DNA of 64,000 nucleotides from Squalus acanthias (lineage: Eukaryota), in the NCBI GenBank assembly GCA_030390025.1, contig CM059432.1, positions 63,862,001-63,926,000 of the forward strand, in the 5' to 3' direction. Positions 2,564 to 54,892 of the stretch are shown in pieces. Within the stretch, counting starts at the first letter, position 1. The number at the start of each line of letters is the position of its first letter. The translations under genes and the position numbers were made by a program. The notes under the pieces were generated by a model, which did not search any database, was not told the origin of the DNA, and worked only from the letters and a program-made list of their open reading frames with translations.

Positions 2564-3183
2564 GTCTGGGAGAAACTGGACAGAGCAGAAGCCTTGAAGT
2601 AACCTGCCGCAGCACTTCCTGGACACTTCAGCAACTTCAAGTAAGATAACAAACCAAACACTTCTACAAACTCACCAAGTACCAGTAGAAATCAATCAGC
2701 AACTAACCTGAAAGCAGCTGATGATCCCTTTAAATAGCGCTGGTGGGGTGTTCTTCCTGCTGCTGAACGCATGTTCAGCTGTGCGTGTTTCAGAGAGGGC
2801 GTTAACTGGAGCATTGAGGTCAAAAATGGCAGTGCTTGCGTCAAATCAGCGTTACGTGCTGACTGACATCACGATCTGTCTACACTGCTTATTTTTGGCG
2901 CCGCTCCCAGCACCCGCGCTAATGACCTCACCAAAATGGCATCCGGTGTGGCCCGCACCAGAAGTGTGCACGCACGGTGCGGACGCCAGTTTGGACCTAA
3001 AACAGCATCTGTAGTGCCGACAAACCGGGTGCTACAGAGCCAAATGTCGCAGCTCAGGTTTCTGGTTAGCACCTCCAGGCAAGTTCAAATTATGGTAATC
3101 GGCAATTAGGACCAAAATTGTCTGCTAAATTGGGACTTTCAAACAGACAAGTCTTATTAGCACTGCATCCATTTAGTGCCTTT

Positions 3184-4827: not shown

Positions 4828-4839
4828 CTTTGGCCAAAA

Positions 4840-8071: not shown

Positions 8072-9331
8072 CGTTCGCGGAGGGAAGAGGAAGACGCAGA
8101 AGAGGAGGAAGCAGAAGAGGAGGAAGCAGAAGAGGAGGAAGCAGAAGGACGGATGCAACCCAGACAGCCCCTTTCTGGCCGGGATATCCGGGATGGAATC
8201 ATCCACCTGCGGTACCAGTGACCACAACCCCAATTCCGCTTTCAACATTTGTCCCACACCTTCCCTTCCCTCTGTTACTGCCCATCACAGCATCCTCTTG
8301 GCCACAATGCTGAAATAAAAGCCACCACAAAGCAAACTTTCCAATCCAACTTTATACATCTATCCATCCAATATGATATCAAGAAATCAACTCATCACCC
8401 TTATGCATTCCCTTAGTGAATGTTTTGTTTGTGCCTTTGCCTATCCTACTGATGTCACGCAGTGCTACCCCAGTGGCTGCAGCATGGCTGGTGGAAGGCT
8501 GCTGACTTTCAGTGGGGCCACTGCAAATGGCCTTGCTGGTCAACCTTGAGGAGCTGGTGGCTGGGAGTGTGAAATCAAGTGACGGTTTTTCTTCTTCTTC
8601 TTGTTCCTCTTCTTGGGAACCCACTGGCTGGGCAGACTGCATTTCTTGGGTCTGTGAAATGAGGAAGGGACAAGTGTGGAGTTGTGGTGAGGGGAGGGCA
8701 GGAAAGCAAGAGGTGCATGCCAGAAGGAGTATAAAGTATGAGGATACCCGCATCTTGTATCCTTTTAGCCCCACCGCTGACCAAGGGCACAGCAATGGCC
8801 CTGCCAAGAATGGCCAGCACCGTCTCCTTCAAGGGGGTGAGGCGAAACTAGGAATGTGAGATGTGCCTCGTGATTGGTATAGATTGTTGGTGGTTGAGTG
8901 ATGGGGGTGGTGGTCATGCATTGAGCAGTGTGTGAGGCTAGTGGTGCAGTTGGTAGGAGACGGCTTTTGAAGATGCATTCACTGAGCTTGACCAGTTGTC
9001 TGAGGTCATGAAGTTTCTTTGAGCACTGGAGCCAGGTGGTGGTTGCGACACTACTGGCAGTGACGGCCTCGGTGATGTACTCTCACATTGTTCTTCCTGG
9101 AGGGCCTCTGGCCCCTGTGGGTAGAGGACATGTCTTGCAGTGTTGACCCCCTGCACAAAGCTGGAGTGCTGCATGCGAGACCCTGGGTGCCTCTTCCTTG
9201 GCTTGCTGAGCCATTTGTGTTAGTGCTGAAGTACTTTTCCCTGTTATTAGGTGCGGAAGAGAATTCAGCTTTAAGAGCTGAAGACTCCCATTTGGGAATT
9301 CTTTTTAATGTTATTTTTTTCATAAAGCAGT

Positions 9332-9550: not shown

Positions 9551-10366
9551 GCAGTTGAGCTGTAAGGGCTAAAAACTGCCTATTTTTATATGATTTTTTT
9601 ATTTCAGAAGGTACTGCCCCTTTAAGAGACCGACAGTGCTTTCTGAAATGACAGCCTCGAATTACGCTACGGCCATGCTACATTGGGGCCTCCTGCCAGG
9701 ACGAACGCCACCAGGACGGCGTTGCACAGTGAGTTTAGTGCTGGGCTAATGTTAATTAGTCCCCAGCGCCAGTTTGTCGGTCCTGCCAGCGCCACCTTTT
9801 TCTGCAGCTGTTAACACCGGCCCGCGGTGGCACCGGCAGCTTTTGTGGCGTTCACGAATTTCTAGGCCTTGATTTCTGAAAGATTATGCAATTTGGAAAT
9901 TCAGGAGGTGTTGTATTGTTAAGGCAATTCTAATTCGTACATAAACCCAAGATATTGTTTCAATTTTAATGTCAATTTTATAGTGTATTAATAATAAATG
10001 ATTGTTTTCTTTTTAAAGCCACGTTTTTTGCCTGAAGTTTTGTTAAGAAAAAGAGCCCATGAAGATAAAAATTAAATTAAATCATGTGGAGATAAAAAGG
10101 CAATGCCCCAAGTTAAAGTGTAAAATCACTTTGCACCTTTTTGCTCCTGCAACTATTACACCTAGATTATTTCTAATTCTCCTAACTTAATGACAGCGGG
10201 ACATGCTCGTGGGGCTAAATGACCTATGTTCCTCTATATTTAATTTTGTAATCAGGGGAAAATGGAAATGTTACAGTGGTGAAGAAGGGATACATTTTTG
10301 AGATTCAGACATTACAGTAGAGTGTTTATTCTGAATCCATTGAATTACCTTGACCTCTGCAGTTAA

Positions 10367-10628: not shown

Positions 10629-11629
10629 AGCAGGAAACTATAGGCCAGTTAGCCTAACATCTCTCATTGGGAAAATGCTGGAATCCATTATTAAGGAGGT
10701 AGCAGCAGGATATTTAGAAAATCATAAGACAATCAAGCAGAGTCAACATGGTTTTATGAAAGGGAAATCGTGTTTGACAAATTTGCTAGAGTTCTTTGAG
10801 GATGTAACAAACAGGGTGGATAAAGGGGAACCAGTGGATGTGGTGTATTTGGATTTCCAGAAGGCATTCGATAAGGTGTCACATAAAAGGTTACTGCACA
10901 AGATAAGAGCGCATGGGGTTGGGGGTAATATTTTGGCATGGATAGGGGATTGGCTAACTAACAGAAAACAGAGAGTCGGGATAAATGGATCATTTTCCAG
11001 TTGGCAACCAGTAAATAGTGGGGTGCCACAGGGATCAGTGCTGGGGCATCAACTATTTACAATCTATATTACTGACTTGGATGAAGGGACCGAGTGTACT
11101 ATAGCCAAATTTGCTGATGATACAAAGATAGGTGGGTTAGCAAGTTGTGAGGAGGACACAAAGGGCTGGATTTTGAATGACCCATGGAGTCGGGTTTGGA
11201 GGCGTGTGGGGGGTTAAATTTGCGGGGTCGGGGTTTCCGACCCCATCCCGACTCCACGCAATTTTGACATAATCAGTCGCGGGGTTCCCAACTCCGTCCC
11301 ACCTTCAAGAGGCGGGAGAGGCCATTAAAGCCCTTAACAAGCTCTAAATTGGCTCTGTAATGCCATTTTGAAATGCTGTAGCTAGTTTAACCCTTTTCTG
11401 ACGTGAAGCACGCCTGGTGTGAAACACTCCAGTGAAACCTGGCGGGAGCACAAGTGGATAGCTGACTATCGGCTGCAGGTCCACTATTACAACGGAGATG
11501 TGATGAAGGTAGTAGTAGTAATAGGTCTGAACGTCGCCTCTGATACTGCTGCATTGAATGTCTTCAGAGACTGCCTGGGAGGACTTGCTTGGCCAAAAAA
11601 TTCATTCTCTGTCTCTGTCTCTGTCTCTG

Positions 11630-11679
<50 letters not shown>

Positions 11680-12854
11680 CCCCCCCCAATTTTTGCATCC
11701 AGGTCCACTCACATCAAAAGCAAGCCAGGCAGGTCCTCTATCACCAACAGTCTCTGAGACTAGGCAGTCAGCAATGATGACATCATCAGAGGCGACTTTC
11801 AGACTAAAAACACTAATTAGTTCATGGGTTCCCACATGCTCCAACTCAATTGCCCAATTAAGTGAAAATTGCATCAGGCATCCACATTAATCTGGAGTCG
11901 GGGGGGAAACACAAATTGCAGATTACACGACCCCAAAACAAAATCCAGCCCAAAAAGTCTGCAAAGGGATATAGATAGGTTAAGTGAGTGGGCAAAAATT
12001 TGGCAGATGGAGTACAATGTGGGAAAATGTGAGGTTATCCACTTTGGAAGGAAGAATGAAAAAGCAAATTATTATTTAAATGGAGTGAGACTACAAAATG
12101 CTGCAGTACAAAGGGATCTGGGGGTCCTAGTACATGAAACACAAAAACTTAGCATGCAGGTACAGCAAGTAATTAGGAAGGCTAATGGAATGTTGGCCTT
12201 TATTGCAAGGGGTATGGAGTATAAAAGTAGGGAAGTTTTGATGCAACTTTACAGGGCCCTGGTGAGACTGCACCTGGAGTACTGCGTACAGTTGTGCTCT
12301 CCATATTTTAAGGAAGGATATACTTGCATTGGAGGCAGTACAGAGAAGGTTCACTAGGTTGATTCCTGGGATGAAGGGGTTGACGTATGACGAAAGGTTG
12401 AGCAGGTTGGGTCGATACTCATTGGAGTTTAGAAGAATGAGAGGTGATCTTATTGAAACATATAAGATTCTGAGGGGGATTGACAGGGTGGATGCTGAGG
12501 GGATGGTTCCCCTAGTGGGGGTATCTAGAACTAGGGGGCATAGTTTCAGAATAAGGGGTCGCCCATTTAAGACGGAGATGAGAAGGAATTTCTTCTCTCA
12601 GAGGGTCGTGAATCTTTGGAATTCTCTACCCCAGAGAGCTGTGGAGGCGGAGTCACTGAATATATTCAAGGCGGAGATTGACAGACATTTGAACTACAAG
12701 GGAGTCAAGGGGTATGGGGAGAGAGCGGGAAAGTGGTGTTGAGGACAAGATTGGCTCAGCCATGATCTTACTGAATGGCGGAGCAGGCTCGAGGGGCTGA
12801 TTGGCCTACTCCTGCTCCTGTTTCTTATGTTCTTATGTTCTTCTTATGTTCTTA
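10629..12854 (+). mobile_element. 5'-truncated CR1 LINE (RT domain and 3' UTR), split by a MITE
   Basis: [38 protein letters not shown]. One frameshift near 12310. (TTCTTATG)n tail. Confidence 0.95.
11163..11951. mobile_element. Harbinger-type MITE, copy 1 of a young family
   Basis: Perfect 13-bp TIR GGGCTGGATTTTG / CAAAATCCAGCCC, TSD AAA. The CR1 frame resumes across it. Near-identical copy at 23098-23911. Confidence 0.92.
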
Positions 12855-22640: not shown

Positions 22641-24493
22641 GGGGGGAGCTTTATCCCCCTAAAACGGGTGGCTTTGGGTCGGATGGGGTGTTAAAATGTT
22701 AAAAATCTCTAATCCGAACCCAACCCACTTCGAACCCTCCCACTTCCGGTTTTAATAGAGACGGGACAGGGATGGATGACTAACCTGCTCCCAGGAGGTG
22801 GGTTGCACATTTAATTATTTTAATGAGACTGTGTGCCCCAGATTTTACCCCCACTTTAAATTTAACTGTTGACAGCTGCGTTTCCCAGGCCTCGGTAATC
22901 CTGGCAGCTGAAGGGAGGCGAGGACAGCTGGATTCAGCACTTAAGTGCCTTTTCAGCCCTGCTTGTAGGCCAGAAGGAGCAGGAGTGCTTCTCCCCGACC
23001 CACCAAGCTAACCTGCTTCCCGCCCTGCGATCAGCTGTTCGCCCCCACCCTGTGATCAGGCCCCCCCGCAATCCGATCTGTCCCCTCGAGACACGTTGGG
23101 CTGGATTTTGAATGACCCATGGAGTCGGGTTTGGAGGCGTGTGGGGGGTTAAATTTGCGGGGTCGGGGTTTCCGACCCCATCCCGACTCCATCCCGCCTC
23201 CACGCAATTTTGACATAATCAGTCGCGGGGTTCCCAACTCTGTCCCGCCTTCAAGAGGCGGGAGAGGCCATTAAAGCCCTTAACAAGCCCTAAATTGGCT
23301 CTGTAATGCCATTTTGAAACGCTGTAGCTAGTTTAACCCTCTTCTGACGTGAAGCACGCCTGGTGTGAAACACTCCAGTGAAACCTGGCGGGAGCACAAG
23401 TGGATAGCTGACTATCGGCTGCAGGTCCACTATTACAACGGAGATGTGATGAAGGTAGTAGTAGTATTAGGTGTGAACGTCGCCTCTGATGCTGCTGCAT
23501 TGAATGTCTTCAGAGACTGCCTGGGAGGACTTGCTTGGCAAAAAAATTCGCTCTCTCCCTCTCTCCCTCTCCCTCTCCCTCTCTCCCTCGCCCTCTCCCT
23601 CTCCCTCTCTCTCTTTCTCTCTCTCTCTCCCTCTCCCTCTCTCTCCCATATCCAGGTCCACTCACATCAAAAGCCAGGCATTTCCTCTCTCACCAACAGT
23701 GTCTGAGACTAGGCAGGCACCAATGCTGACATCATCAGAGGCGACTTTCAGACTGAAAACACTAATTAGTTCATGGGTTCCCACATGCTCCAACTCAATT
23801 GCCCAATTAAGTGAAAATTGCATCAGGCATCCACATTAATCTGGAGTCGGGGGGGAAACACGAAATGCAGATTACACGACCCCAACCCGACCCCAAGACA
23901 AAATCCAGCCCGTTGTCTCCCTGAGCCACGATGTCACACTAACCCAATCTCCCCCCCCACCCACCCCTGGTCTGTTCAATCCCTCCCTCCCTCCTTCTTC
24001 TGCGCTCCCCGGCTGCGGTATCCGATCTCCCCCCAACCCTTCCAATCTCCCACGACCCTTCCGATCAACTCCCCTCCGATCCTTCCAATCCCCCCGACCC
24101 TTCCAATCTCCCCTCGCTCTTCCAATCCCCCCCTTACCCTTCCAAATCCCCCGGCTCTACCGATCTCCCCCCACCTGAGGCTTCCGAGCTCCCCCCGCCC
24201 CCTCCAGCCTCCGATGTCCCCTGACACCAGCCTCTGATCTCTCCCCTTCCCAGCATTTCCAATCCCTCCTTCTCTCCTTTCCGCAACCCGGCTGTGACCT
24301 GGTGCCGGATGCCTACCCACCTGACAGCCAGCCAGCCTGTCAATATGGCTGGCTGCGGCTAGGAAATGGAGACAATAAATGTTAATCAGGTCCTATTAAA
24401 TTCGGCAGGACCAGAGGGAAACCTGTTCTTCCAGGTTTCCCGAACACAAAAGGGCCCTCTCCCCCCGGCTTCCTCCCCGTAAATATCGGGGCC
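22641..24493. mobile_element. Harbinger-type MITE with dissimilar ends, hosting a nested MITE
   Basis: 3-bp TSD ATT (22638-22640, 24494-24496). Ends GGGGGGAGCTTTA / TAAATATCGGGGCC. C-rich low-complexity core. Confidence 0.72.
23098..23911. mobile_element. Harbinger-type MITE, copy 2 of the young family
   Basis: Perfect 13-bp TIR, TSD GTT (23095-23097, 23912-23914), near-identical to 11163-11951. Confidence 0.93.
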
Positions 24494-24880: not shown

Positions 24881-26248
24881 ATGTTGAATCAGGCTGCGCC
24901 CCACTTTAATATTGCCTCTCTTGATGTGCTGCTGGGGATGGTGAGGAGTCAGAGAGAGGTTCTATTCTCCAGCAACGGGAGGAAGAAACCTCCAGAAAGG
25001 CACGGCTGGAAGTGGCACAGGAGGTCGGCAGCAGGAGTGTAGTGCCACGCTCATGGATTCAGTGCAAGAAGCGCTTTAATGACCTAAACAAGTCAGTAAA
25101 GGTGAGTACAGGTCCTGCTGTGCGCATCACCCCAAATCCTCACTCTGCCTTCTCAAGCCTACTCCAGCACATCACTCCTCACACCCACTTACCTTGCACG
25201 CCCACCCATCCTTCTCTTTCTATGCATTTCCTCACATCCTAATCTATCCATCCACCACTCCCACTCACCCTCATCCTTATGCAATTTCATGCCTCTCCAA
25301 CATAGTCAGCCTCACTAAATGCACACCATCCATTGGCTGAACACATGCCATTACACAAATTCAAAGGTCTGTTCTTTCTCTCCTTGCAGGAGAAGAGAGC
25401 ACAGAACACCAGGGAGAGGCAGAGAACTGGAGATGGCCCTCCACGCATTTCCCAACTTACAAGTACAGAGGAGGAGGTGCTGGAAATCAGTGGAGTCTCG
25501 GCGTGCCTGGCTGTGGTAGATGGGGAGATGGGGAGCTCCCAGCTACCTGGTGACACAATGAAATATCAGCCACCCACGTGTCATATGGCACTCAGTCATG
25601 TTAACTTGATTTCACCAGTGAGTGGAATATGATCATTTTCATAATAATAACTTGCAACATTCTTAACTTGCCAGTACTCATTCATGTCTTTTATCTCCTG
25701 TAAAATACCCTAGTTGTGTATGATTAGGATTTGGTTTAATCTCATATGATTAAGGTTTTTGTTTTCTTTTTGCTTATAAATGGCTTGTGGATTTGTACTG
25801 TAGCTAGAAATAATGAAATGGTTAAAGTTGTTTATTCCCAGGATGCTTTAATGATTAATGTGTCAGGGTACAATTTAGCTGACTGTGCTGTTTAGCTTCT
25901 GCTGGGGTGCAGGATGTGTGATTCGTGCCTGTTGACTTATTTTTGTGGCAAAAGGGAACATGGAAATGGGGGCTCCACTCAAAGCGCTTCCACTTCTTAC
26001 CCGTTGCCACCTCCCCCCCCCCCCACCCCCATGCTGCACCTGTCTCGATGGCCGAGTCTGCCCCTGCACAGGTGCAGGTGGAGCAGTCTTTGGTGGGCCC
26101 CTCACAGGCTCCAAAACCCAGAGAACGTCGGCGAAGAGCATCTCAGCAGTCAGAGCAGGGATCTGAGCAGCCTGCCTCTACCTCTGCTGAAGACACAGGG
26201 ATTGCAACATGTAGGAGCGATAGGAAAAGGAAGATTATCTATTTGTAG
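24881..26248 (+). pseudogene. Harbinger Myb/SANT-like gene, multi-exon, disrupted
   Basis: VAQEVGSRSVVPRSWIQCKKRFNDL with donor AAG|GTGAGT at 25101/25102. Acceptor ttgcag|GAG at 25389/25390 (EKRAQNTRERQRTGDG). Terminal exon remnant ~26045-26248. Confidence 0.75.
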
Positions 26249-27260
26249 TTACACAAGGGTATGCACATGGGTGTCTTAGACATTGTTATGTTGCTATGTT
26301 TTTGTTCTTTACTTGGGGCACATAAATATTATTCTTTTGCACCACTTTTCCATTTTGCCCATTCTTGGTTGCTGGCTGGCCTTTTAAGTTGTTTGATGAT
26401 GAATGGGAAGACATTAGTTGAAGCAACCAATGAGGAGATGTGAAAGGGGTGGTTGGTTGGTTGCAGGACTGCTTTGTGTTAGTGGCATTGTGGGGGAGGG
26501 GGCGGTGGGGGGATGGCGGAAAAGTGGCTGCTGTATGTGGTTGTGAAATGGGTCCACTGGTGGAACCTATGTGAACCTCACAATAATCATGGCATCCTTC
26601 AGCAGCAATGAGGGTCGCTGGTGGTGCATTTCCTAATCACCTTCCTCCTGCTCCTCCTCCTCTTCTTCCTCCTCCTCCTCCTCCATGGAATCCTCTGAAG
26701 AGGATCTGCGCTCTGCGCCTTGGCCCTCCTGCAGGTCCAAACCTTGCTGCTGAGCGATGTTGTGCAGAGCACAGCACACCATGACCATTCTGGAGACCCT
26801 GGCTGGTGCATACAGAAGGGCACCTCCAGATCTGTCTAGGTACCTGAAGCGCATCTTCAGCATGCTGATGGCTTGTTCGATGTCACATCTGGTGGTGATA
26901 TGGCATTGATTGTAGTGCTCTTGGGTTTCATTCCTTGGCTTTCTGAGGGATGTCATCAGCCACATTTTAAGTGGGCATTCTTTGTCTCCGAGCAGCCACC
27001 AGTATGCAAAGACATCAGGGACGTTAGATTGCTGCAGGACAAAAGCATCAAGGCAACGGCCCAGGAATCTGGCGCACACCTGCATAAAGATCATTTGGTG
27101 GTTACACACCAGCTGCACATTGATGGAGTGGAAGCCCTTGCGGTTGACAAATACTCCTGGGTGATTTGGGGAGGCCCAGATTGCCACGTGTATGCAGTCA
27201 ATGATACCTTGCAACTGTGGAAAGGCAGCCAGAGACACAAACCCGAACATCCATTCATTC

Positions 27261-29240
27261 TTTTTTAAAATTAATTCATGGGATGTGGGCATTGCTGGCA
27301 AGGCCAGCATTTATTGTCCAACCCTAGTTGCCCTTGAGAAGGTGGTGGTGAGCCACCTTCTTGAACTGCTGCAGTCTGTGTGGTGGAGGTACTCCCACAG
27401 TGCTGTTAGGGAGGGAGTTCCAGGATTTTGACCCAGCGACGATGAAGGAACGGCAATATATTTCCAAGTCAGTACGGTGTGTGACTTGGAGGGGAACTTG
27501 GAGGTGGTGGTGTTCCCATGCGTCTGCTGCCCTTGTCCTTCTAGGTGGAAGAGGTCGCGGGTTTGGGAGGTGCTGCCGAAGAAGCCTTGGCGAGTTGCCG
27601 CAGTGCATCTTGTAGATGGTACACACTGCAGCCACGGTGCGCCAGTGGTGGAGGGAGTGAATGTTTAAGTTGGTTGATGGGGTGCCAATCAATTGGGCTG
27701 CTTTGCCCTGGATGGTGTTGAGCTTCTTGAGTGTTGTTGGAGCTGCACTCATCCAGGCAAGTGGAGAGAATTCCATCACACTCCTTACTTGTGCTTTGTA
27801 GATGGTGGAAATGCTTTGGGGAGTCAGAAGGTGAGACACTCGGCACAGAATACCTAGCCTCTGACCTGCTCTTGTTGCCACAGTATTTATGTGGCTGGTC
27901 CAGTTAAGTATCTGGTCAATGGTGACCCCCAGGATGTTGATGGTGGTGGATTCAGCGACAGTAATGCCATTGAATGTCAAGGGGTGGTAGTTAGACTCTT
28001 GCTTGTTGGAGATAGTCATTGCCTGGCACTTGTGCTGCGCGAATGTTATCTGCCACTTTTCAGCCCAAGCCTGAATGTCGTCCAGGTCTTGTTGCATGCG
28101 GGCATGGACTGCTTCATTATCTGAGGAGCTGCGAATGGCACTGAACAATGTGCAGTCATCAGCGAACATCCCCATTTCTGACCTTATGTTGGAGGGAAGG
28201 TCATTGATGAAGCAGCTGAAGATGGTTGGGCCTAGGACACTGCCCTGAGGAACTCCTGCAGTGATGTCCTGGGGCTGAGATGATTGGCCTCCAACCACCC
28301 CAACCATATTCCTTTTTGCTAGGTCTGACTCCAGCCAGTGGAGAGTTTTCCCCCCGATTTCCATTGACTTCAATTTTACTAGGGCTCCTTGATGCCATAC
28401 TTGGTCAAATGCTGCCTTGATATCAAGGGCAGTCACTCTCACCTCACCTCTGGAATTCAGCTCTTTTGTCCATGTTTGGACCAAGGCTGTAATGAGGTCT
28501 GGAGCTGAGTGGTCCTGATGGAACCCAAACTGGGCATCAGTGAGCAGGTTATTGGTGAGTAAGTGCCGCTTGATAGCATTGTCGATGATACCTTCCAGCA
28601 TTTTGCTGATGATTGAGAGTAGACTGATGGGGCGGTAATTGGCCGGATTGGATTTGTCCTGCTTTTTGTGGACAGGACATACCTGGGCAGTTTTCCACAT
28701 TGTCAGATAGATGCCAGTGTTGTAGCTGTACTGGAACAGCATGGCTAGAGGTGCGGCTAGTTCTGGAGCACAAGTCTTCAGCACGACAGCCGGGATGTTG
28801 TCGGGGCCCATAGCCTTTGCTGTATCCAGTGCGCTCAGCCGTTTCTTGATATCACGTGGAGTGAATCGAATTGGCTGAAGACTGACTTCTGTGATGGTGG
28901 GGACCTCAGGAGGAGGCCGATAGGGATCATCCATTCGGCACTTCTGGCTTAAGATGGTTGCAAACGCTTCAGCCTTGTCTTTTGCACTCACGTGCTGGGC
29001 TCCACCATCATTAAGGATGGGGATATTCATGGAGCCTCCTCCTTCCGTTAGTTGTTTAATGGTCCACCACCATTCACGACTGGATGTGGCAGGACTGCAG
29101 AGCTTTGATCTGATCCATTGATTGTGGGATCGCTTAGCCCTGTGTATAGCATGCTACTTCTGCTGTTTAGCATGCATGTAGTCCTGTGTTGCAGCTTCCC
29201 CAGGTTGGCACCTCATTTTTAGGTACGCCTGGTGCTGCTC
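27261..29240 (-). mobile_element. 5'-truncated LINE family B (CR1/Jockey-group non-LTR retrotransposon)
   Basis: Transposase sequence resumes on both sides. Contains a 568-aa open RT frame and a short AT-rich tail. Confidence 0.95.
27324..29030 (-). CDS. LINE ORF2 fragment, reverse transcriptase, lacking the endonuclease
   Basis: [39 protein letters not shown]. An upstream in-frame stop near 29154 and 5' truncation mean it is not a complete ORF2. Confidence 0.9.
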   Translation of the reverse strand: MNIPILNDGGAQHVSAKDKAEAFATILSQKCRMDDPYRPPPEVPTITEVSLQPIRFTPRDIKKRLSALDTAKAMGPDNIPAVVLKTCAPELAAPLAMLFQYSYNTGIYLTMWKTAQVCPVHKKQDKSNPANYRPISLLSIISKMLEGIIDNAIKRHLLTNNLLTDAQFGFHQDHSAPDLITALVQTWTKELNSRGEVRVTALDIKAAFDQVWHQGALVKLKSMEIGGKTLHWLESDLAKRNMVGVVGGQSSQPQDITAGVPQGSVLGPTIFSCFINDLPSNIRSEMGMFADDCTLFSAIRSSSDNEAVHARMQQDLDDIQAWAEKWQITFAQHKCQAMTISNKQESNYHPLTFNGITVAESTTINILGVTIDQILNWTSHINTVATRAGQRLGILCRVSHLLTPQSISTIYKAQVRSVMEFSPLAWMSAAPTTLKKLNTIQGKAAQLIGTPSTNLNIHSLHHWRTVAAVCTIYKMHCGNSPRLLRQHLPNPRPLPPRRTRAADAWEHHHLQVPLQVTHRTDLEIYCRSFIVAGSKSWNSLPNSTVGVPPPHRLQQFKKVAHHHLLKGN

Positions 29241-30439
29241 TGTCATCATCACAGGCAAAGTTGACATAATTGGCAGTCCTAACGAACAAGTTATCAGTCG
29301 CATTTGTGGGCTGCTGACTGAAAGATCCTGCAAATGTCTCCAGCAGAGCCCTGGAAGGATCCAGAGGCAAAAAAGTTGAAGGTGGTGGTGACTTTGAGAC
29401 CCATGGGTAAAGCGTGACCACCGGGCCCAGCTGGCAGCAGGTCTTGTTCCAGCAATCTGCAGATGTCTGCCACCACCTGACGCAACACCCTGAGCCTCCT
29501 GAGACACTGCTGTTCTGACACGTCGAGGAAGCTGATCCTCTACCTTTACACCCTGTGTGGTGGGTATGGCCTCCTGTGAGCTGCACCTCACTGCTACTGC
29601 TCCCCTCTCTGCTGCTCCCCTTTCTCCTGTGCAGCTACAGGTCTGTGACCAGCAGGCTGCTGCTGTTGCTGGTGCTGTTGCTGGTCACCTTGGTCCTCAT
29701 CTGAGGTCCAATCTAAGGCAGCATAAGCGGCATCCATCCTGATGTGATAGATCAAATCTCCAACGTGTAGAAGAAACCTCCAAAGTGTAGAAAGTCAACT
29801 CTCAGCAAAAGTACTGTGAACAAACCCTTTCACACTCGAGGTAAAAAAGCAGCTGTGAGCACTGTGTATTTATTGCCATATTTGCGCACACAGCCTAACG
29901 CGTTGGAATGAAACCCGGAAGTCGGCGAGTTTGAGCCGGCTTCCCGACAGGCTGTCAATTTCACCGGCTTTAACCCCCCACCTGCTCCCAAACCCGCACG
30001 CTCTTCCATGTTAAAATTCCCCCCCGTTTCAGTTTTCAAAGAAAAACAAGCTGAATTACAGAATGTGATCCTGAAACACTATGGGGTAGAAATTAGGTCG
30101 CGCCCCATTTGGGGCGCAAATATCGTCCGGACGCAAATATTAGCGCCTGGCGCTAATTATCGGCACTGACAGGAAACTTCACTTTTACCGCCCCGGGAGG
30201 TGAGTGGAGCGTTAAAGTAGGCGCTGCACACCTCTCTTAAGGCGCAAAGGCCAAGGAGTGAGGCGCTAACTCAGCGCACGAGCGCAGCGCAGCTGCTGCC
30301 AGTTAGCGAGGGAACACAGACACACTGGCGCCGGACACTTCTTAAAGCGGGGGGGGCCACTTGCTCCCCAGCCACACCCTGCTCATTGCAGCCTTGAATC
30401 TCAGCCTGGAGAGACCTGTAATCCATTTTGCTGCCAAGC

Positions 30440-32319
30440 ATGGAGAGGGTGAGAGAACGCGCTCATCGCTTCACCGAGCGGGCCTTGGATGCTCTGGTTG
30501 ACGCAGTGGAGCGCAGACGATGCATGCTGTTCCCGGAGAGTGGCAGGAGGCCTTTGCCACGCGAGTTCAGAAGAGCGTGGAGGGAGGTGGCTCAGAGCGT
30601 CTCCTCCAGGAGCATGGTGCCCAGGACCCATGTTCAATGCCGCAAAAAGTTCAACGACCTCACTCGGGTCGTCAGGGTGAGTGGCTTTTTCTCAATATCT
30701 CTCCATCCCTCCATCTCAACCTCACTCTATGGCCAGAGGGTGTTAAAACCCCAATGCACAACACTCATCCAACACCTATGGCCCTTTCATCAAACACACA
30801 CACACATTCCACACTTTGCATACAGTAAGGGCTATTCACCTATGGGAGGCACATCAGGCAAGACCATGGCTGTATATTGTAAGGGCTATTCAACTATGGG
30901 AGGCACATCAGGCAAGACCATGGCTGTATATTGTAAGGGCTATTCACCTATGGGAGGCACATCAGGCAAGACCATGGCTGTATATTTACTCAGATGCTGT
31001 CCTTTTTCTTGCAGGCTAAGCTGGCTCATAATCGGAGACAGCAGCAACGGACGGGTGGAGGGCGGCTTCAGCTGCAACCCCTCAGCGATCTGGAGGAGCG
31101 CGTCCACAGGATTGTGGCAAGCCGGGTGATCGGTCCCGTCGCCACTGGAGACGCCGACCCCGTTGTGGACAGCAATGGTAAGGTCATCACCTTTTTGTCC
31201 TCTGTCCTTCCACTTGTCCCTCACAATACCAGCCTTTGACACTTTCAATCCAACTTGCTAACTCGCTGCACTTATTCCTCCCTTACTGCCACACTGTCCT
31301 CACGCTAAAGCCACTCTTGTAACTCCCTGCTTTCAGATGGTGATTCACCAGCTGAGGAGACGGGCCCTGAAGCTGCCACTGGGAGTGATGCTGCAGCTGA
31401 GGAGGAAGAGGAAGCCGGAGCATCAGTGCCACCCTCTCCCGAGGAAGCCCATGCCCACACTGGGAACACGCCTTTCCCGGAGGGGAGCAGGGGGGAAGGG
31501 GCTGATGATGGTGAAGCTCCAGGACCCAGCGGGCTGCAGCAACGCCATGGGGGGGGGGGTAGGGAAGAACGGGGGCCTTCTCCCCAGAGGGAGAGTATGC
31601 CAGACACTCCTACTGCAATGGACGCAGAGGAGGAGCGGCTGATTGCAGAAATGAACACCCAGGTGGTGGGCATGCACACTGAGCTCATGGGTGCAGTGGG
31701 AAGGGTGCCCGATTGCATTGAGTCACTGGCAAGGAGTGTGGAGCACTTCGCTGTAGCACAGGCGGATGCCACACTAACGCTTAGTGCTGCAATTCAGTCA
31801 CTGGCTGCCGTGATCCCACCTCTGACTGCTCTCATACAGACTCAGATGGAGGCCACGCGAGCACAGACTGCTGCCAACCTCGATGGTTCGTGCACATGTC
31901 CCCGGGGCTGTCACCGCGCCGCAGCAGGCCAGCAATCTGTTCTCCGGCAAATTGCTCCGGATGCTGAAGTGCTGCCCCGTGGGAGTGCCAGTGTGTCGGG
32001 CGAGCAGGGAGTTGCTGGCCTCTCTCATGATGACAGCATTCCTGCTGCCAACACTGTCACTTCTCCACTGCACTTGCCACCGCCTGTAGGACAGACTGCT
32101 GCCGCCCATGCAGAGTTGGTGCAGTCTGCAGCCGGGCCCTCCAGGCCCAGAAGTGGTCGAGGCCGTCCTTCAGGGGCATCTGCAGTGTCAGGGTCTGACG
32201 AGCAGCAGCCTTCCACCAGCCTTGCTGCAGCCACTGAGGTCCCATTACGGAGGAGCAGTAGGGTTAGAAGGGGGGAAGTGCGCAAGGGAAGGAGATCACC
32301 CTCGAAGGGCAAAAAGTAG
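30440..32319 (+). CDS. Harbinger Myb/SANT-like DNA-binding protein; exons 30440-30676, 31015-31177, 31337-32319; 460 aa predicted
   Basis: RFTERALDALV...WREVAQSV...RTHVQCRKKFNDL. GT-AG introns of phase 0 and phase 1 join into a 1383-nt open frame. Basic C-terminus RRSSRVRR...KGKK. Confidence 0.88.
30825..30986. repeat. 3 x 54-bp tandem repeat in intron 1
   Basis: GTAAGGGCTATTCACCTATGGGAGGCACATCAGGCAAGACCATGGCTGTATATT at 30825, 30879 and 30933; one mismatch. Confidence 0.95.
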
Positions 32320-32613
32320 GAGGTGTGCCAAAATGCTGGTCATTTTTTTATTAAAGGCCGAGGTTCATGGTCCAACTTTTGTTTAGTGTTTTGGACATTA
32401 TCTCCAGGTTGTGAGAACCAGTTATGTTATTGACTGTTTTTTTGTGTTTATTTCTATGAGTTTGTCATGAGGAATTGACACACACAGAGTTTGTAAAATA
32501 AATAAGTTTCTGTATTCAAAATATACATGGCTGGTGGTTGGAATTATTGGTGCCTTGGCCGGCTTAGGGGTTGCGTGCTGGGTTGATTAGTGTTTGTAGC
32601 AATGGCAGGGGCC

Positions 32614-33774
32614 CTAGAAGCGGCTTGCTATTAGTCGTTGACGGACGGCCCTTGCAGTTTGACCATTGTGGGCCGCCCTCCTGCCTTGGTGCTGCTGATG
32701 ATCATCGTCCTCGTCCTCATCCTCCTCTTCCTCCTCCTCCTCTGGTGGTGCTACAAGGCCTGGTGGCATTGGCTGGGTCCTGAGGATTGCCATGTTGTGC
32801 AACATGCAGCACACGACTACGAAGTTCGAAACTTGCTCAGGCGAGTACTGCAGGGCTCCTCCGGAATGGTCCAGACAGCGGAACCGTTGTTTCAGCACGC
32901 CGATTGTGCGCTCAATAATGTTCCTGGTTGCTTGATGGCTTTCATTGTACCGCAGCTCAGCACGGGTGTTTGGCGTACGGAGCGGTGTCATCAGCCAGGT
33001 GCTCAATGCGTACCCCTTGTCCCCCAGAAGCCAACCAACTGGCTGATGCGGTGCCTCGAAAACCTCTGCCACAGTAGTCTGGCGCAGGATGAAAGCATCG
33101 TAGCAGCTGCCCGGATAGTGGGCATTGACAGCGAGTATCACCTGTCTGTGGTCACAGACCAACTGCACATTCAAGGAATGGAACCCCTTTCTGTTCCTGA
33201 ATTCCTCTGCATTCTCTCGCGGAGCACGCAAAGCCACATGCGTGCAGTCAATGGCGCCCTGCACCATGGGGAAGCCTGCTACCCTCGCAAAGCCCAGAGC
33301 ACGGTCACGCTGCTTGTCTGGGGTCATAGGGAAAGAGATGACGTCTCGTCTCCTTCTGAAGAGGGCATTGGTGACCTGCCGGATGCAGCGATGCACCGCA
33401 AACTGGGAGATATTGGCGAGGTCCCCAACAGCAGCTTGGAATGAGCCAGTGGCGTAGAAGTTCAAAGCCACTGTGACCTTCACTGCCACCGACAGAGACG
33501 TCCTGGACCTCAGCTGAGGCTGCAGATCTGGCTGCAGCAGGTGGCAGAGCTCAGTGACCACCTCCTTGCTGAATCGCAGCCTTCGCAAACACAGCTCCTC
33601 GGACATATGGATGTAGGAGAGCTGTTCACGATATACCCTGGGAGGGTAAGCTCTCCTGTACATGCGCCTGATGGCCCTCCTCCGTCTGGCCATCATTGCC
33701 ACTCTCTGTCTGCGTCTCACTATCCTCCGATTCAGCTGGAGCAGGACGACGCCCCCAATCATTGCAGCCCCCAT
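32614..33774 (-). CDS. PIF/Harbinger DDE transposase (HARBI1-like family), 386 aa, uninterrupted
   Basis: [50 protein letters not shown] and an acidic tail. Lies inside TIRs. Confidence 0.95.
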   Translation of the reverse strand: MGAAMIGGVVLLQLNRRIVRRRQRVAMMARRRRAIRRMYRRAYPPRVYREQLSYIHMSEELCLRRLRFSKEVVTELCHLLQPDLQPQLRSRTSLSVAVKVTVALNFYATGSFQAAVGDLANISQFAVHRCIRQVTNALFRRRRDVISFPMTPDKQRDRALGFARVAGFPMVQGAIDCTHVALRAPRENAEEFRNRKGFHSLNVQLVCDHRQVILAVNAHYPGSCYDAFILRQTTVAEVFEAPHQPVGWLLGDKGYALSTWLMTPLRTPNTRAELRYNESHQATRNIIERTIGVLKQRFRCLDHSGGALQYSPEQVSNFVVVCCMLHNMAILRTQPMPPGLVAPPEEEEEEEDEDEDDDHQQHQGRRAAHNGQTARAVRQRLIASRF

Positions 33775-33967
33775 ATTCTCTTTGCCAGAAAAGTAATGAG
33801 GTACAGCAACTAAAGTAGCAACAAAGTTAGGATGAACTAGGCAAAACTACCTCACAAAGCGTTGAGTCAATGTAGAAGTCTCTCTCTCTCTCTCTCCGAA
33901 TCTCTCTCTCTCTCTCAGAACGAGTGGTGCATAAATGTCGACCACAGAAAAAGACAGGAAGAGGCCC

Positions 33968-33981
33968 CCTTTAAATAGCGC
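33968..33981 (-). promoter_or_regulatory. Candidate TATA-like box of the transposase gene (GCGCTATTTAAAGG)
   Basis: About 200 bp upstream of the ATG. Identical 14-mer at the equivalent position at 2727-2740 and at 52179-52192. Confidence 0.6.
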
Positions 33982-35214
33982 CCCCCCCCAGCCCCACACC
34001 GATTGATAACGTTCCAGTCTTCCGGTCGTTGGAAGCGCCAGGCGGTAAGGCAGGGGGCGCCACTCAATTTCCGCTCCGGGGCGCCCCAAGGGCGTTGCAC
34101 CATGGAATGACGTCACAATCTGCGCGCGCAGGTGGTCGCAGCGGTAAGTTTTAGCGCCGCCGCACAATCTCAAGTTAAGTTCTCGAGCGGCGCAAACAGC
34201 GCTGCGCCCGGGTGTTAGCGGCTTAACGCCCCATTAGCGCCCTCTTAAGGCGCTAACGGGAGGCGCAACCAAGTGAATTTTTACCCCTAATATCCTAAAA
34301 TCGAATGCAATAGTAAGAAATGTCACTTATTCAGTCACCTTGAAGCAATGACCTTTTATTATTTGCCTTTTTATTAAGTGCTGCTTTTCGGTTGTACTGT
34401 ATGTTGTTTTATGAGTTGTCAACTTTTGAGGTTGTGTCAAAGTTTTTGTGCTTTGCAGGTTAGCATATATGGAATCATGGTAGGCACCAATCGTTGGATA
34501 TACCAGCACATGTTCTTATACCTGGCCTCCAGATAGCACCTACCAGCAGCTGTCATCCCAAGTCTCGGAGTTTCCTCATCAGCTATATGGTGGATATCTG
34601 CTTTTAATGTGCTGGAAGAAGCTTTACAGTACAACTTGCAATGTACCTACCAATTTGATGTTCTAGATCTAAAGCCCAATGCTACATACCACACTTACTC
34701 ATCGCTAACTGTTTAATTCAGATCTTCATATGAGGGCCTTTGGAAAAGACACATGTCCACTGTGAGGTTACTCCCCAATATCTGCTCCAGGGTGCTCAGT
34801 GACAAGTAGCTGTGGGCTAGAACCCTCAGTCCTTAAAATCATTTCACTATTTTGCCACAAATCCACCTCCGAGCCTACTGTTTGATCTTACATGGGCCAA
34901 AGGAAGCCTTCCATTGTATGCTGAGCAGTTCCAAGTCATGAAGGAAATCAAAAGAAAATTATATTTTTGTATATATAAGTTCTAGCATTATTATATAGTA
35001 CCAATGTTATGTCAGTGGAGGGCTGGTCAGAAAATCTCAGGTCCGCAGACTTGATTTTCCAGCCATTTAAATTAATAGACAGAAAATCAGAAGTTGTAGG
35101 TCCACAATCTCCCAATCTGGTCCTCCCTATGAGTGCTGCTCCTCATCAGGAGTGCCCAATCAAGAATTAGCAAGATTGTAGAGGCCCAATTGCTTCCCTG
35201 AGGGTATCCAGTCT

Positions 35215-49650: not shown

Positions 49651-50166
49651 AAGTACGTGACGTGTTCATATGCTAATATTTATATAAGGCAAATTCAAGG
49701 CCAAGCTGTTTTTTTTATTTTCCATTTATCGTAAATTATATGTCAGCATTTCAGCACTCAAAGGAATTCAACTCAGTGCTACAAATGCTGGCTTCTATCA
49801 ATTTATCTGTCATGCTCCAATTCCTCTTCACTTAATGCACATTTAATGATTCTTAACACATTGCACCCAGAGTAAAATATTGCCTAGTGTCCACATGTTT
49901 TGTTCAGCAAGGTGAGAGATATAAATGCTGGGAAAAGTTCTCTCAACCCTTCCTGAACAATGTGTGTTAATCAAGCCACAGAGAGTATCCCGAACCATAT
50001 TGGGGTGAATTTTCCATTTCCTACATCTGCTACCCTTGTGTCCTCTTTAAGTGACTTTGCCATTTTAGTATCAATTTTGTATGTAGTATATTCAGTCTTG
50101 TGTTGTGGATTTGTGCCCATTAGGAACTGTATTGATTGCTCAAGCATATTTCATGTAAGACACTTA

Positions 50167-51467
50167 GGCCTTGAAATTTGAACCATTAGCTCCGGCCGTT
50201 AAGGCTGGTTTTGAAGAAAAAATGGCTGCGGAATGCGGCGGCCACCATATTGGGCAGGTCAGCAGAGCTGCTGTTGCCTGCGCTCGCCGCAAGTATTTTA
50301 ATTACCAGGAGCGTGACGTCAATCGGTGTGCAACATCGAATTGACGTACGCTCAGCGATTTTGGGGCGTCGTCGCTCCTCTTACCGTGCTCTCCAAAGCA
50401 AGCTTGTGCGTGCAGCCGGTGACAGCATGTAGAGCCAAGAGAAAGCAGCGGTGAGCTACAAACCATACATTAAACAGCTGCTGAAAGAACTGGTAACTAT
50501 GGAGAGCTCAGACTCTGTCATTGGAGTGAAAACTGCTTCCAATGAGATGCATCAAATCTCCCCCCTGGTCAGTCAAACATTACAGGAGGTAACTATTTTT
50601 AAAATAAACTATACTGTACTACAGTTGTAAGAATCTCAGGAAAAAAATCAAAGCTGCATTTCCTTAAATTTTATAAATTGGGTTTTCTAGTGGTGCTACA
50701 GGAAACTTTTGTTTATCCGGCACCCAAATATCCGGAATTCTCGCTTAACCGGCAAAAATCATCCTCCGAAAACTCCTCTCAAATAACCGGCAATGTTGCC
50801 GAGTCGCAGTCGAGTCTCCGCGAACGCCGAATACTCCGAAAACTCCTCTCAAATAACCGGCAATGTTGCCGATCCCGAGTCCGAGTCCGAGTCCGCGAAC
50901 GCCGATTTAGTCAGTAGGGGTAGTTTTCAAAAGTGCCACTACTCGGCCTCCTGGCGCTGTCGGAAGTATACTGCACATTTCTTGATTTATTTATTTTTCT
51001 TTGTTAAAAATAGCCTCGGTAGATATAACTCTCCGTTATCCGGTACTTTCGATAAACCGGCACCACGCCGGTCCCGTCGGTGCCGGTTAAAAAAGAGTTT
51101 CCTGTACTTCCTTTATATTGCACTCAATCCATTACATTTTCTGCATTTGGCTTATATTTTGGGCATAATCTCAGGATTTCTCATGCAACGGTTTAAGGAC
51201 ATCTATGCTGGGCTTTCATTTGGAAATGTACTATTAATAATGTGACTACCCGAGAACGCTGCACCGCTCCTTTAGACGCGACCTTCGGCCTCCTACTAAT
51301 GTTACCGCCGGAAAGAGCGCGTTGCACGGGAGCTTCAGCGCTGCGCTCATTTAAATCAGCAGGCAGCACCAAAATACCAGTGCTGTTTGCGCTCTTTTTG
51401 CGGGTGGACATTAACCGTGACGTGCGGTGGCACTGCCTGTTTCCGGGCTTAATCGAATTCCTAGGCC
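50167..51467. mobile_element. Harbinger-type MITE hosting a nested MITE
   Basis: TSD TTA (50164-50166, 51468-51470). TIRs GGCCTTGAAATT / AATTCCTAGGCC. Confidence 0.88.
50699..51104. mobile_element. Tc1/mariner superfamily (pogo/Tigger-type) MITE, 406 bp
   Basis: TA TSD (50697-50698, 51105-51106). 26-bp TIRs CAGGAAACTTTTGTTTATCCGGCACC (23/26). Internal ~39-bp direct repeat at 50764 and 50834. Confidence 0.9.
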
Positions 51468-51497
51468 TTAAAATCTACAGAGAACGGAGACTTCCAA

Positions 51498-52496
51498 GGG
51501 GTTATTTTGGCCAAAGGGTGAAAACAGGCGCTAAATGGGTGCAGTGCTAATAAGACACGCCTGTTTGAAAGTCTAGATTTAGCAGACAATGTTGGACTTA
51601 ATTGCTAATTGCCATAATTTGAACTTGCCTGGAGGTGCTAAACAGACACCTGCAGGTTTAGCACTCAAGCACTGATTAGACACAATTTTTGTGGAGCAGT
51701 ATATGTGGGCTTCTTGCACCCGCTTCCACTGAAGGTGTGGAGTGCTCTGGCTGGCACATAGCGGCACGTTTCAGGATAGGTCAGGGACCGAGGGAGAGGG
51801 TGCACAGGTTCTCTGATGCGACACTGGAGGTCCTGGTGGAGGAGGTCCAGAGGAGGGGGATGTCCTGTATCTGCAGGGGGAGAAGGACGCCACCTCGCCC
51901 TCCTGTCCCTCTCTCCTGCAGCAGCTGGTGCTGCTCTGCCTCGTCTCATGTCCTCCTCCCATTTCTGTCCAGACCAAGGGGGCCCTTTCTCCTGGTGACT
52001 ACACAAAGGTGTCCAATAAGGTAGAGTAGCACAGCACTTACTATTTTTAGGTGAAATCCTCAGAGAATTTGCTCGAGTGTTGGTGAAGTCTTGACAAAGA
52101 GTTCCAGAAAGTCTCCCGATGTGTTTCAGAGGTCCTCTTCACAGCTCCAACAGCAATGACCATGAAATGGTGACTATTCCTTTAAATAGCGCTTGAAATC
52201 CACATCAACGCTGTGGTTACTCCCAATCAGCTGGTCACTGTTAGGAGAGAGCATTAGAACAAGCACTAGCCACCAAAATGCAGTGCAGCCTCTTTAATGA
52301 GCGCTAGCATGCAATTTAAGTGGTAATGAGTTGCTTAACGATCCTCTGGGTGGCTGTTCCTAGCGCAGGCTTCAATTCCTTTACCATGATGGCGGCTTGC
52401 GCTAAACGCAGGCTAAACCTGCGTTTCAGCTTAAGACCCCATGTTGGCCACCTTGGAGGCTCCTTAGCACCTGAAGTGTTCGGCGAAAATTGCCCC
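51498..52496. mobile_element. Non-autonomous Harbinger deletion derivative
   Basis: TIR-like ends (14/18). Myb start RERVHRFSDATLEVLVEEV on + joined to a transposase 5' region with the conserved TATA-like motif on -. TSD not matched. Confidence 0.75.
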
Positions 52497-52727
52497 TCCC
52501 CCCCCATTTTTTTGCCTGACTTTAGACTGAGATTTAGTTTCAAAGGTATAAGAACTATGCAGTAACTTATGGCACCACCCAGTCACTAGTTTCCACTATT
52601 ATAATCCATACATGGTTTTCTGTACAACCAAGTAAAAATAATAAGTAAACTTATATTTAATAACTATTACACGATTGCCCTCAAATGTAAAATCTCTCTT
52701 ACAGCCTTTTCACATGTGTTACAGAAG

Positions 52728-52820
52728 CATAGGAACATAAGAATATAAGAAATAAGAGCTGGAGTAGGCCATTTGGCCCTTCGAGCTTGCTCCGCCATTC
52801 AGTGAGATCATGGCTGATCT
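52728..52820 (-). mobile_element. CR1 3'-terminal fragment
   Basis: Matches 42837-42930. Confidence 0.8.
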
Positions 52821-53057
52821 TATATACATATATGTATAGGTATAGAGAGCACGCTCTCATTTATATTGTGTAATCTCTGAGTAGCTAATGTTTGCTATGG
52901 CAAAAATCAGTTATGCTCAATTTACAGTAGAATTGATCTAATAGCCTAGAAACCCTAGAAAAAGGGGTGGGACAGCATTATGAGTGCTAGTGAGGATGTG
53001 TGCTTCTTTTGCACGCAATGCACAAGGTGAAAGGGAGAATCCAGCAGTTGTCATAGG

Positions 53058-53887
53058 CAGGGCCGCCGTTAGGAAAAATGGCGCCCTGGGCGAACTTGTA
53101 TTTTCGCACTATTTCTTTGAGCTTAAGTACATAGTAGTATTAGTTAAAAGAAACCCCACTTTTAAATGTCTAAATCCTCTTGCTTCCGTTAAAAGCAAAG
53201 TCAACCAACCAATAGGTTTGCAATCTCTAGTCAAATTTCACCTACAACTAACAGTAGAGTGACTCATTCCCAACTACCACATATTTAAATATTTTTAAAA
53301 CTCCCCTCTCTTGAACAAGGTTCAGTAAAAGTCTATAAGTTCTTTTGTTTATTTTACGGATTGGTTGGTTTATTTAGAAACCTGCCTGAACTCACCTGGC
53401 GCCCACCACCAGCCTTGGTAACTGCGAGTCTACCTGGTGATCTTCGTGCTCTCAGCGCTCCTCCACGCGCGCTGCCTCCCAGGTGAAACAGCCAGCCCAC
53501 TCTGTGCTGCCCATGTGGCGGCCGCGCTCTGCTCCCACCAAACCCGCCTCTAGCCGCCGCTCATTCACTTACTCGCCTGATCCACATTCCCGATGGGAGC
53601 GCCAATTGTTCCGCCTGTGGGTGTCAATCAAACAAACTGGCAGTCACTCTTGGAAATCCCTATTGAAGGGTTTGGTGGCAGGGAACAAGGGAGGGTCTGC
53701 TCAATCTGATTGCAGAGCAATTCGCTACTCGAACTGCTGGTTATGATCTGTGTTAGAAAATAATTACCAAATCAACTTTAAACTATCATTTCAGGGTTTC
53801 CTGCCATGTCATCTTTCTCCGCCCACCACCCCCAACCACGGCGCCCTGGCTGGTCACTCACGTCGCCCACTGGTAAGGCCAGCCCTA
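53058..53887. mobile_element. Possible hAT-type non-autonomous element
   Basis: Ends CAGGGCCGCCGTTA / TAAGGCCAGCCCTA; subterminal GGCGCCCTGG motifs; no 8-bp TSD visible. Confidence 0.4.
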
Positions 53888-54036
53888 ATTAGAGTAGTGT
53901 GGATGTCATGCGTGTGCAAAGTGTGGGGAATAAGACTAAGTGGATTGCTCTCCGAAAGAGCCGGCGCAGACTCGATGGGCCAAGTGGCCTCCTTCTGTGC
54001 TGTACTATTCTATGATTCTAAGTTGAAGATTGGGTT

Positions 54037-54259: not shown

Positions 54260-54892
54260 TATTGGCAGTAGTGAAAGAAGGAAACAGGAGGTGAGCATGA
54301 GAGGTGGTGCTGTGTACCTTTGTGATTGGTGCTGAGGAAAGTGAAGCAGGGTGAGGAGTGGTATGATGGTGCAGGAGGGACAAGGGGAAGTGGAAGGAGG
54401 TGCATTGCAGGAGATGGGTAAAGAAGTACATGTGCTGGCCTCTCCTGACATAGTCAGGTCATTGACACATTGCCTGCACTGGATCCAGGATCTTGGTGTG
54501 ACGCTCCTGCTGCTCACTTCCTCAACCACCTCAATCCATTCCTTCTTTGTGGTGGCAGCAGGTTTCTTCTTCCCACTTGTGAGAAAGAACGCATGCCTCC
54601 TGGCCCTCACTGATGTAGCAGGGCCTCCAGGGAAGCATCAGAGAACCTGGGGCCAGCTTCCCTCTCTTTCCAGACATAATACAGATTTTTAATAACACTT
54701 GATGTACTCCTATCCCTCAGCCTCCCTTGCAGAGGTGGACTGAGCCTTTAAATAATGGCTGGGAAATTATGTCAAACGGGAGGGCAGCACCCGTTAAAAT
54801 CGGGCAGACTTCCACTTCACGTAATGTTGCAGCCTCGTCACCCAGGACAGCCCTCGAACGCTCCATTCCTGTCTCCGGGAAAAATCGGGGTC
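54260..54892 (-). mobile_element. Harbinger end fragment with Myb/SANT exon 1
   Basis: WIEVVEEVSSRSVTPRSWIQCRQCVNDL; terminus GACCCCGATTTT in reverse complement. Confidence 0.75.

Follow-up and report, generated by a model that had tools for sequence, protein, structure and literature searches.

A full-length two-gene PIF/Harbinger transposon in Squalus acanthias, probably a decaying member of an abundant and recently active family

PIF/Harbinger transposons need two proteins, a DDE transposase and a Myb-like partner, which is described as binding the element ends and bringing the transposase to the nucleus (PMC2836001, PMC9179366). An element of this kind lies at 30083..34287 in a 64,000-nucleotide stretch of the Squalus acanthias genome (contig CM059432.1, positions 63,862,001 to 63,926,000; the whole stretch is called the window hereafter), and it raises the question of whether this copy is an active transposon in its own right or a passenger of its family. 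An initial annotation, made from the letters alone, had described a complete two-gene Harbinger and a candidate recently active element. The completeness is borne out, with both reading frames open (386 and 460 amino acids) and terminal inverted repeats (TIRs) present. As to activity, the family has recently been active, as seen in near-identical copies and presence/absence variation, whereas the private loss of a conserved histidine (Tyr225 here, with Val145 as another private change) makes the autonomy of the window copy itself doubtful. We assign a probability of about 0.7 to the reading that this is a young, neutrally decaying, full-length copy with intact ends, from an abundant PIF/Harbinger family that was recently active and perhaps still is; the copy would then probably be a decaying passenger rather than an active master.

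The element is 4205 bp long, and its limits are given by the TIR pair, by a step in contig depth and by a contig that skips the interval. The left TIR (30083..30094, plus strand, GGGGTAGAAATT) and the right TIR (34276..34287, minus strand, GGGGTAAAAATT as the reverse complement) are the 12-bp repeats behind the initial call; they begin with GGGG, hence with a purine, and agree at 11 of 12 positions, the right one being the sole inverted match with at most one mismatch in bases 1-57700 of the window. The subterminal GGCGC arrays noticed earlier are likewise present (30 GGCGC/GCGCC per kb in both ends, 1.4 per kb inside the element and 0.6-0.8 per kb outside it) and resolve to the 8-bp motif GGCGCWAA, with five motifs in both orientations on the left (30113..30269) and four on the right (34151..34256); these are probable binding sites of the Myb-like protein. 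Nine of the 11 GGCGCWAA motifs in the 64-kb window fall within the element ends, for which 5000 doublet shuffles gave 0.09 motifs on average and at most 4. The retained CpGs, also pointed out initially, are a real but modest argument for youth: the observed/expected ratio is 0.58 in the element versus 0.40 in the rest of the window, highest in the two ends (0.85 and 1.07) and 0.59 in the transposase coding sequence, while the relic transposases of the window have 0.51, 0.29 and 0.23.

Four public runs were compared, namely X1 (DNA, organism A, the best-matching organism), X17 (guessed to be RNA, organism A), X8 (DNA, organism C) and X19 (guessed to be RNA, organism B), about 55% of X1 being covered by the analysis. 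One contig of X1 (record 4; 1,251 nt, depth 16.4) joins both flanks without the element, and so supplies the empty site that the initial annotation had proposed to look for. It matches 29919-30078 with 0 differences and then continues without a break into 34287-34800, where it has 2 substitutions plus 14 gap letters. The join reads AAACAC-TAA-TATCC, the C at 34287 standing for the C at 30079. At this one site the target triplet is TAA, and the filled site carries TAT on the left (30080..30082, plus strand) and TAA on the right (34288..34290, plus strand), i.e. a single mismatch; the left TAT is therefore a changed copy of the target site, and the unequal flanks, a caveat of the initial annotation, are settled in favour of the element. 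The target of PIF/Harbinger is given as 3 bp (PMC2836001, PMC9179366), with TWA as the canonical form (PMC4482050). The contig may represent another allele within one species, the corresponding locus of a sister species or the product of a precise excision. The right boundary is also seen in summed contig depth, which falls from 1.5e6 in the last element bin to 80 just outside, and in both X17 and X8 the loose contig ends set in immediately after 34287. An X1 joint of depth 45 leads from 34287 to 30083 with one A between them, as would arise from head-to-tail family copies or from a circle junction.

Near-identical copies, which the initial annotation had suggested searching for, abound. A total of 29,357 contigs of X1 match the stretch that was compared, of which 6,225 do so at 99% identity or more, 10,387 at 95-99% and 12,745 at 90-95%; together with the empty site they bear out the proposed youth of the copy. 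Summed depth in X1 is 2.3e5-1.5e6 inside the element versus 16-147 in the right flank, and the ratio of element to flank depth in the least-covered internal bin is bounded between about 460 and about 14,000, summed contig depth not being the same as copy number. We claim hundreds of element copies or more. The depth of the end bins of X1 (1.2-1.5e6) exceeds that of the internal bins (0.23-0.93e6), an excess that is stronger in X17 and X19; moreover, 30217-33948 is bridged by one X1 joint, and more than one run has loose ends at 30274 and 33949. Internally deleted derivatives of the family therefore occur elsewhere in these genomes. Among 24 listed runs, 20 contain 41-84% of the 31-letter words of the stretch; they come from 11 studies and represent seven coded organisms. 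These shares translate to 97-99.4% identity if the differences are random (a share of 0.84 to 99.4%, one of 0.50 to 97.8%). One small run, X13, has only 9 million letters, yet half of these words are present in it. In organism C (X8) the element is found at about 99% identity in long contigs with an internal depth of 10-40, and the flanks adjoining the element are without contig cover; the pile of organism A, unlike that of X8, is deep and fragmented, run depth being uncontrolled. Copy number may differ greatly between organisms A and C.

The Myb-like (helper) gene lies on the plus strand, convergent with the transposase. Exon 1 (30440..30676, residues 1-79) encodes a Myb/SANT-like domain (Pfam PF13873, Myb_DNA-bind_5, E=8.2e-10) with 51-55% identity to 11 proteins, all of them from sharks and rays. 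It is followed by intron 1 (30677..31014, 338 bp, GT-AG, phase 0), exon 2 (31015..31177), intron 2 (31178..31336, 159 bp, GT-AG, phase 1) and exon 3 (31337..32319), which encodes a basic C-terminal tail and shows 22-30% similarity over the full exon to shark Myb-like proteins (best E=1e-14). The spliced convergent gene proposed initially thus stands as to frame, splice sites and phases, the three joined exons encoding 460 amino acids without stops; its second intron is now seen in joints, and its first is supported by homology. Intron 2 is skipped exactly (159 bases, GT..AG) at depth 264 in X17 and 52 in X19, so that the predicted junction 31177/31337 occurs in both of the probable RNA runs and in neither of the DNA runs (X1, X8). 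These transcripts come from the family, not necessarily from the window copy. As to intron 1, the alignment with one homologue (P0007) stops at its residue 82 in exon 1 and begins at residue 83 in exon 2 (56% identity to residues 83-116, E=2.9e-8). In nine of the 11 exon 1 homologues the match stops at residue 77 and the protein continues with DKLA, exon 2 opening with AKLA, and the translated read-through of intron 1 gave no homology match.

Three 54-bp tandem units, 98% alike, are carried by intron 1 (30825-30986). An X8 contig leaves the element sequence at 30824, and X1 joints also show rearrangements here, so the content of this intron differs among copies. In exon 3, a stretch of 11 G at 31549 has 6 letters more than its counterpart in three of the four runs, and the frame is kept. 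A Myb-like protein conserved across sharks and rays (P0121-P0130, about 400 amino acids in most entries) resembles the helper along exons 1 and 3 and looks like a domesticated Harbinger Myb gene. The two convergent genes share a 3' region (32320..32613) with AATAAA at 32497 on the plus strand and at 32347 and 32447 on the minus strand as candidate signals.

The transposase (32614..33774, minus strand) has the unbroken 386 residues reported initially and matches the full model of Pfam DDE_Tnp_4 (PF13359, 158/158, E=1.8e-37); the GSCYD motif is present as stated. A search found 337 homologues, nearly all of the 120 listed being shark or ray proteins, with 60-66% identity for the best among them. 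Residues 225 and 145 are among those at which the window copy deviates from its own family. At codon 225 (33100..33102, minus strand) it has Tyr where the family has His: base 33102 gives His in 340,120 of 341,256 depth units of X1 (99.7%) and in the entire depth of X17, X8 and X19. At codon 145 (33340..33342, minus strand) the full depth of all four runs gives Phe, and Val is found only in the window copy; in homologues this position is Tyr or Phe in 201 of 238. Of 51 distant homologues whose DDE triad is intact, picked from 251 by intact triad, coverage and an identity under 45%, 48 (94%) have His225, as do 118 of 128 DDE-intact homologues overall, Tyr occurring in one of the 128; this is the only column with at least 90% conservation at which the window copy differs. 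A structure model based on the alignment (pLDDT, the predicted local distance difference test score, 90.4; 39 for a model from the single sequence) has an RNase H-like order of strands and helices and places residue 225 between strand 213-221 and helix 226-232, in a turn that, judging by RNase H-like folds, would border the active site. A Foldseek search with this model returned no PDB structure at E<=0.001, only weak rows of DDE transposases and integrases.

The private changes show the mode of evolution of the copy since its insertion. We scored 37 of the 38 visible element rows of substitutions, leaving out one without X1 support, and in 11 of them at least 93% of the X1 depth carries another base than the window copy. 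Eight of these 11 are coding and seven of the eight alter the amino acid; this is near the share expected at random (74-76%), and there is therefore no visible selection since insertion. The 12 indel rows listed contain no frameshift in the coding exons. Between the window copy and long X8 contigs, 18 of 2,186 bases differ (about 0.8%), and the window copy is about 0.3-0.8% away from its family. Tyr225, beside the conserved Asp226, may be expected to impair catalysis, which suggests that the window transposase is probably weak or dead. A consensus with lost essential residues had been named initially as evidence against an active copy, and this applies in part: His225 and Phe145 are privately replaced, but D176, D252 and E288 are kept.

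In analogy to the known systems, the spliced Myb-like protein would bind the subterminal GGCGCWAA arrays and carry the DDE transposase into the nucleus and to the TIRs, where the protein pair would excise the element and insert it at a TAA target, duplicating these 3 bp. After such an insertion, the window copy would have gathered its private changes, including His225 to Tyr, without visible selection. With its ends intact, it could still be mobilised in trans by sister copies, and its Myb-like gene may still function.

Could the window copy instead be autonomous, with Tyr225 and Val145 tolerated and both proteins working, so that it moves itself and the derivatives of the family? We consider this unlikely, although a number of observations speak for it or otherwise weigh against a decaying passenger. 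Both frames are open, the ends and motifs are intact, the insertion is missing in another sample, and the conserved His is also missing in 3 of the 51 distant DDE-intact homologues. The catalytic triad D176/D252/E288 is intact by homologue alignment, and among 140 conserved columns the protein departs from the majority of the 120 homologues at only 5, equal to the lowest number among 75 well-covered homologues; of these 5, column 225 is the one that we regard as important. The Tyr-giving base at 33102 is still carried by 1,136 depth units of X1. Sequence searches of the PDB with the transposase gave 0 matches, hence no solved Harbinger transposase in which to place His225, and a literature search found no experiment or mutagenesis on this residue. 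Visible substitution rows number 40 of 215, and Logan contigs lose rare variants, so that 'private' may be overstated; part of the private bases could be assembly errors. As for the family, the RNA status of X17 and X19 is a software guess, the joint of intron 1 is absent from the 15 listed of 49 joints (which neither supports nor refutes it), and both guessed RNA runs contain unspliced contigs spanning the donor of intron 1. The empty site is one contig in one run, and organism A, instead of being the species of the window, may be a sister to it. Against autonomy stand the presence of His in 94% of the distant DDE-intact homologues and in 99.7-100% of the family depth in four runs, the rarity of Tyr in the family, which indicates that the Tyr lineage has not multiplied, and private changes without bias to silent sites.

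The timing of the insertion is less certain. It may not be especially recent but an old polymorphism or a fixed species difference in a slow-mutating lineage, the family having already stopped; this can hold together with the reading of a decaying copy, and we give it a substantial chance, if one below even. An old insertion would agree with the 11 or more private substitutions in 4.2 kb and with the distance of about 0.8% from the long X8 contigs. At the mutation rate reported for the epaulette shark (7e-10 per base per generation, PMC10587355), if applicable, 0.3% would correspond to millions of generations, and 'young' is therefore relative. The 41-84% of words held by seven labelled organisms would also fit inheritance from a common ancestor. 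By contrast, 6,225 contigs are at least 99% alike, spliced transcripts occur in two organisms, and no more than 2 substitutions separate the empty and filled flanks over about 670 bases. That the empty site is the scar of a precise excision, not a pre-insertion allele, seems improbable: excision in PIF/Harbinger usually takes the element along with a single target-site duplication copy without a footprint, so that both states look alike (PMC2836001), but in its right flank the empty haplotype departs from the filled one by 2 substitutions and 2 indels, which is what a separate allele would show. The element is mobile in both cases. Finally, a domesticated, immobile two-gene locus of HARBI1/NAIF1 type might be suspected from the label 'putative nuclease HARBI1' on the nearest named proteins and from the likeness of exon 1 to conserved shark Myb-like host genes. 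The chance of this is close to nil; the TIRs, the target-site duplication, the very high copy depth, the empty allele and an identity of at most 66% to HARBI1-labelled proteins oppose it, and empty site and copy depth refute it unless both are artefacts.

The element is a further member of the known PIF/Harbinger kind, and its mechanism is not new, the requirement for two proteins and the TAA target being described in PMC2836001 and PMC4482050. With the elements surveyed by Han et al. 2015 (PHIS; PMC4482050) it shares the TWA target, open reading frames for a DDE transposase and a Myb/SANT protein, short TIRs starting with G, and a similar length (on average about 4.1 kb there, 4.2 kb here); the accessible part of that survey lists no family from cartilaginous fishes. 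TIRs starting with GGG would also fit NuwaI of the same survey, but the NuwaI target is CWG, and membership was rejected on account of the TAA target found here. Harbinger3_DR of zebrafish (Sinzelle et al. 2008, as cited in PMC2836001 and PMC3016246) is likewise a vertebrate two-component Harbinger. The left half of its target consensus AAACAC-CWG-GTCTTT (PMC3016246) equals all six bases left of the target here, whereas its core is CWG versus TAA and its right half matches at one of six bases; ours is a single site, from which no preference is established. Harbinger3_DR needed reconstruction, whereas in the shark family open-frame copies occur naturally and transcripts are spliced. In sea kraits, Harbinger-Snek (PMC8437027) has likewise undergone a massive young expansion, in which intact two-gene copies occur beside non-autonomous derivatives and RNA support is available; it is likened to the shark family by description only, and its horizontal origin is demonstrated there. 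The same kind of likeness, by description and in a different lineage, holds for the coelacanth Harbinger, with evidence of ongoing accumulation in the slowly evolving genome of a fish (Smith et al. 2012, as cited in PMC5381603 and PMC9179366). Closest in sequence are two proteins of Pristiophorus japonicus (P0001 and P0002, 'putative nuclease HARBI1'), which belong to the same transposase clade at 60-66% identity and have the MGA start and the acidic C-terminal tail in common with the window transposase. None of the proteins so labelled exceeds 66% among the 120 listed, and the family of the element itself is therefore not in those annotations.

The initial annotation had also considered the element as a possible mobiliser of the miniature inverted-repeat transposable elements (MITEs) nearby. 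Five MITE-like elements were compared (3641-4488, 5158-5899, 9566-9868, 11163-11951 and 23098-23911). A brute-force scan for inverted termini, which returned mostly chance pairs, left four candidates, two with perfect 13-bp TIR pairs and a 3-bp duplication and two with one mismatch; 9566-9868 was added from a separate TIR scan. Three of the five have clean 3-bp duplications and TIRs starting with GG and look Harbinger-like. Their TIRs are unlike those of the element, none of the five contains GGCGCWAA, and BLASTN against the element ends gave a CT microsatellite, one weak 30-bp match (E=0.026) and matches at chance level, so the proposed role as mobiliser is rejected. As judged from their ends, the five belong to other families, several of them with dead autonomous relics in the window. 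The copies at 11163-11951 and 23098-23911 form a MITE pair, 91% alike, with perfect 13-bp TIRs and duplications of AAA and GTT (not TWA), and 5158-5899 has an AAT duplication.

Older Harbinger remains surround the element. At 671-2438, a dead relic interrupted by stops and frameshifts keeps the same convergent layout and is about 69-70% identical to the element in DNA. An older Harbinger transposase survives in two pieces (26753-27265 and 29300-29578), apparently divided by later insertions, and the probable, TIR-like end of this older element near 30025 is only about 57 bases left of the young one. More relics of Harbinger Myb-like genes lie at 8129-8677, 24994-25101 and 54452-54613. Apart from these, the regions 3001-6000, which contains two of the MITE-like elements, and 50001-54000 are CpG-rich (observed/expected 0.63-0.94 in most 1-kb bins, at or above the element), and a 31-bp G-rich satellite of 202 copies, nearly CpG-free, occupies 57735-63996 and reaches the window end.

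Shark repeats are reported to be dominated by long interspersed nuclear elements, DNA transposons accounting for 1.58% in the grey reef shark (PMC12498223), and PIF-Harbinger is listed in the repeat tables of the whale shark and the grey reef shark (PMC8455134, PMC12498223). According to the accessible part of a 2022 survey, the elephant shark is without Harbinger, and other cartilaginous fishes were proposed there for checking (PMC9179366). A 2026 preprint describes a broad spectrum of segregating transposable element insertions in cartilaginous fishes, Harbinger being unnamed in the main text as far as accessible (PMC13320814). Young, intact Harbinger expansions in vertebrates are reported from sea kraits (PMC8437027) and, as cited in PMC5381603, from the coelacanth. 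A literature search without most subscription papers and without Repbase found no paper characterising an intact or segregating shark Harbinger family.

The empty site and the spliced intron are solid additions beyond the initial annotation, and an empty allele together with a spliced helper transcript provides direct evidence for cut-and-paste activity in the relatively recent past of a slow-mutating group. Since the mechanism is already known, the gain is a concrete family to characterise and presence/absence markers, and the natural His-to-Tyr variant offers a test of an unstudied conserved residue. It is possible, though we hold it only tentatively, that the family is still transposing in the shark germ line today. 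It would then be a two-component vertebrate Harbinger that is spliced and active in nature, with a TAA core and a preference for AAACAC-type flanks, and it would be kept near-identical (about 98-99%) in at least seven organisms either because it has stayed active in a slow clade or because it has spread horizontally. If true, it would provide a natural vertebrate Harbinger system that could be used without being rebuilt from dead copies.

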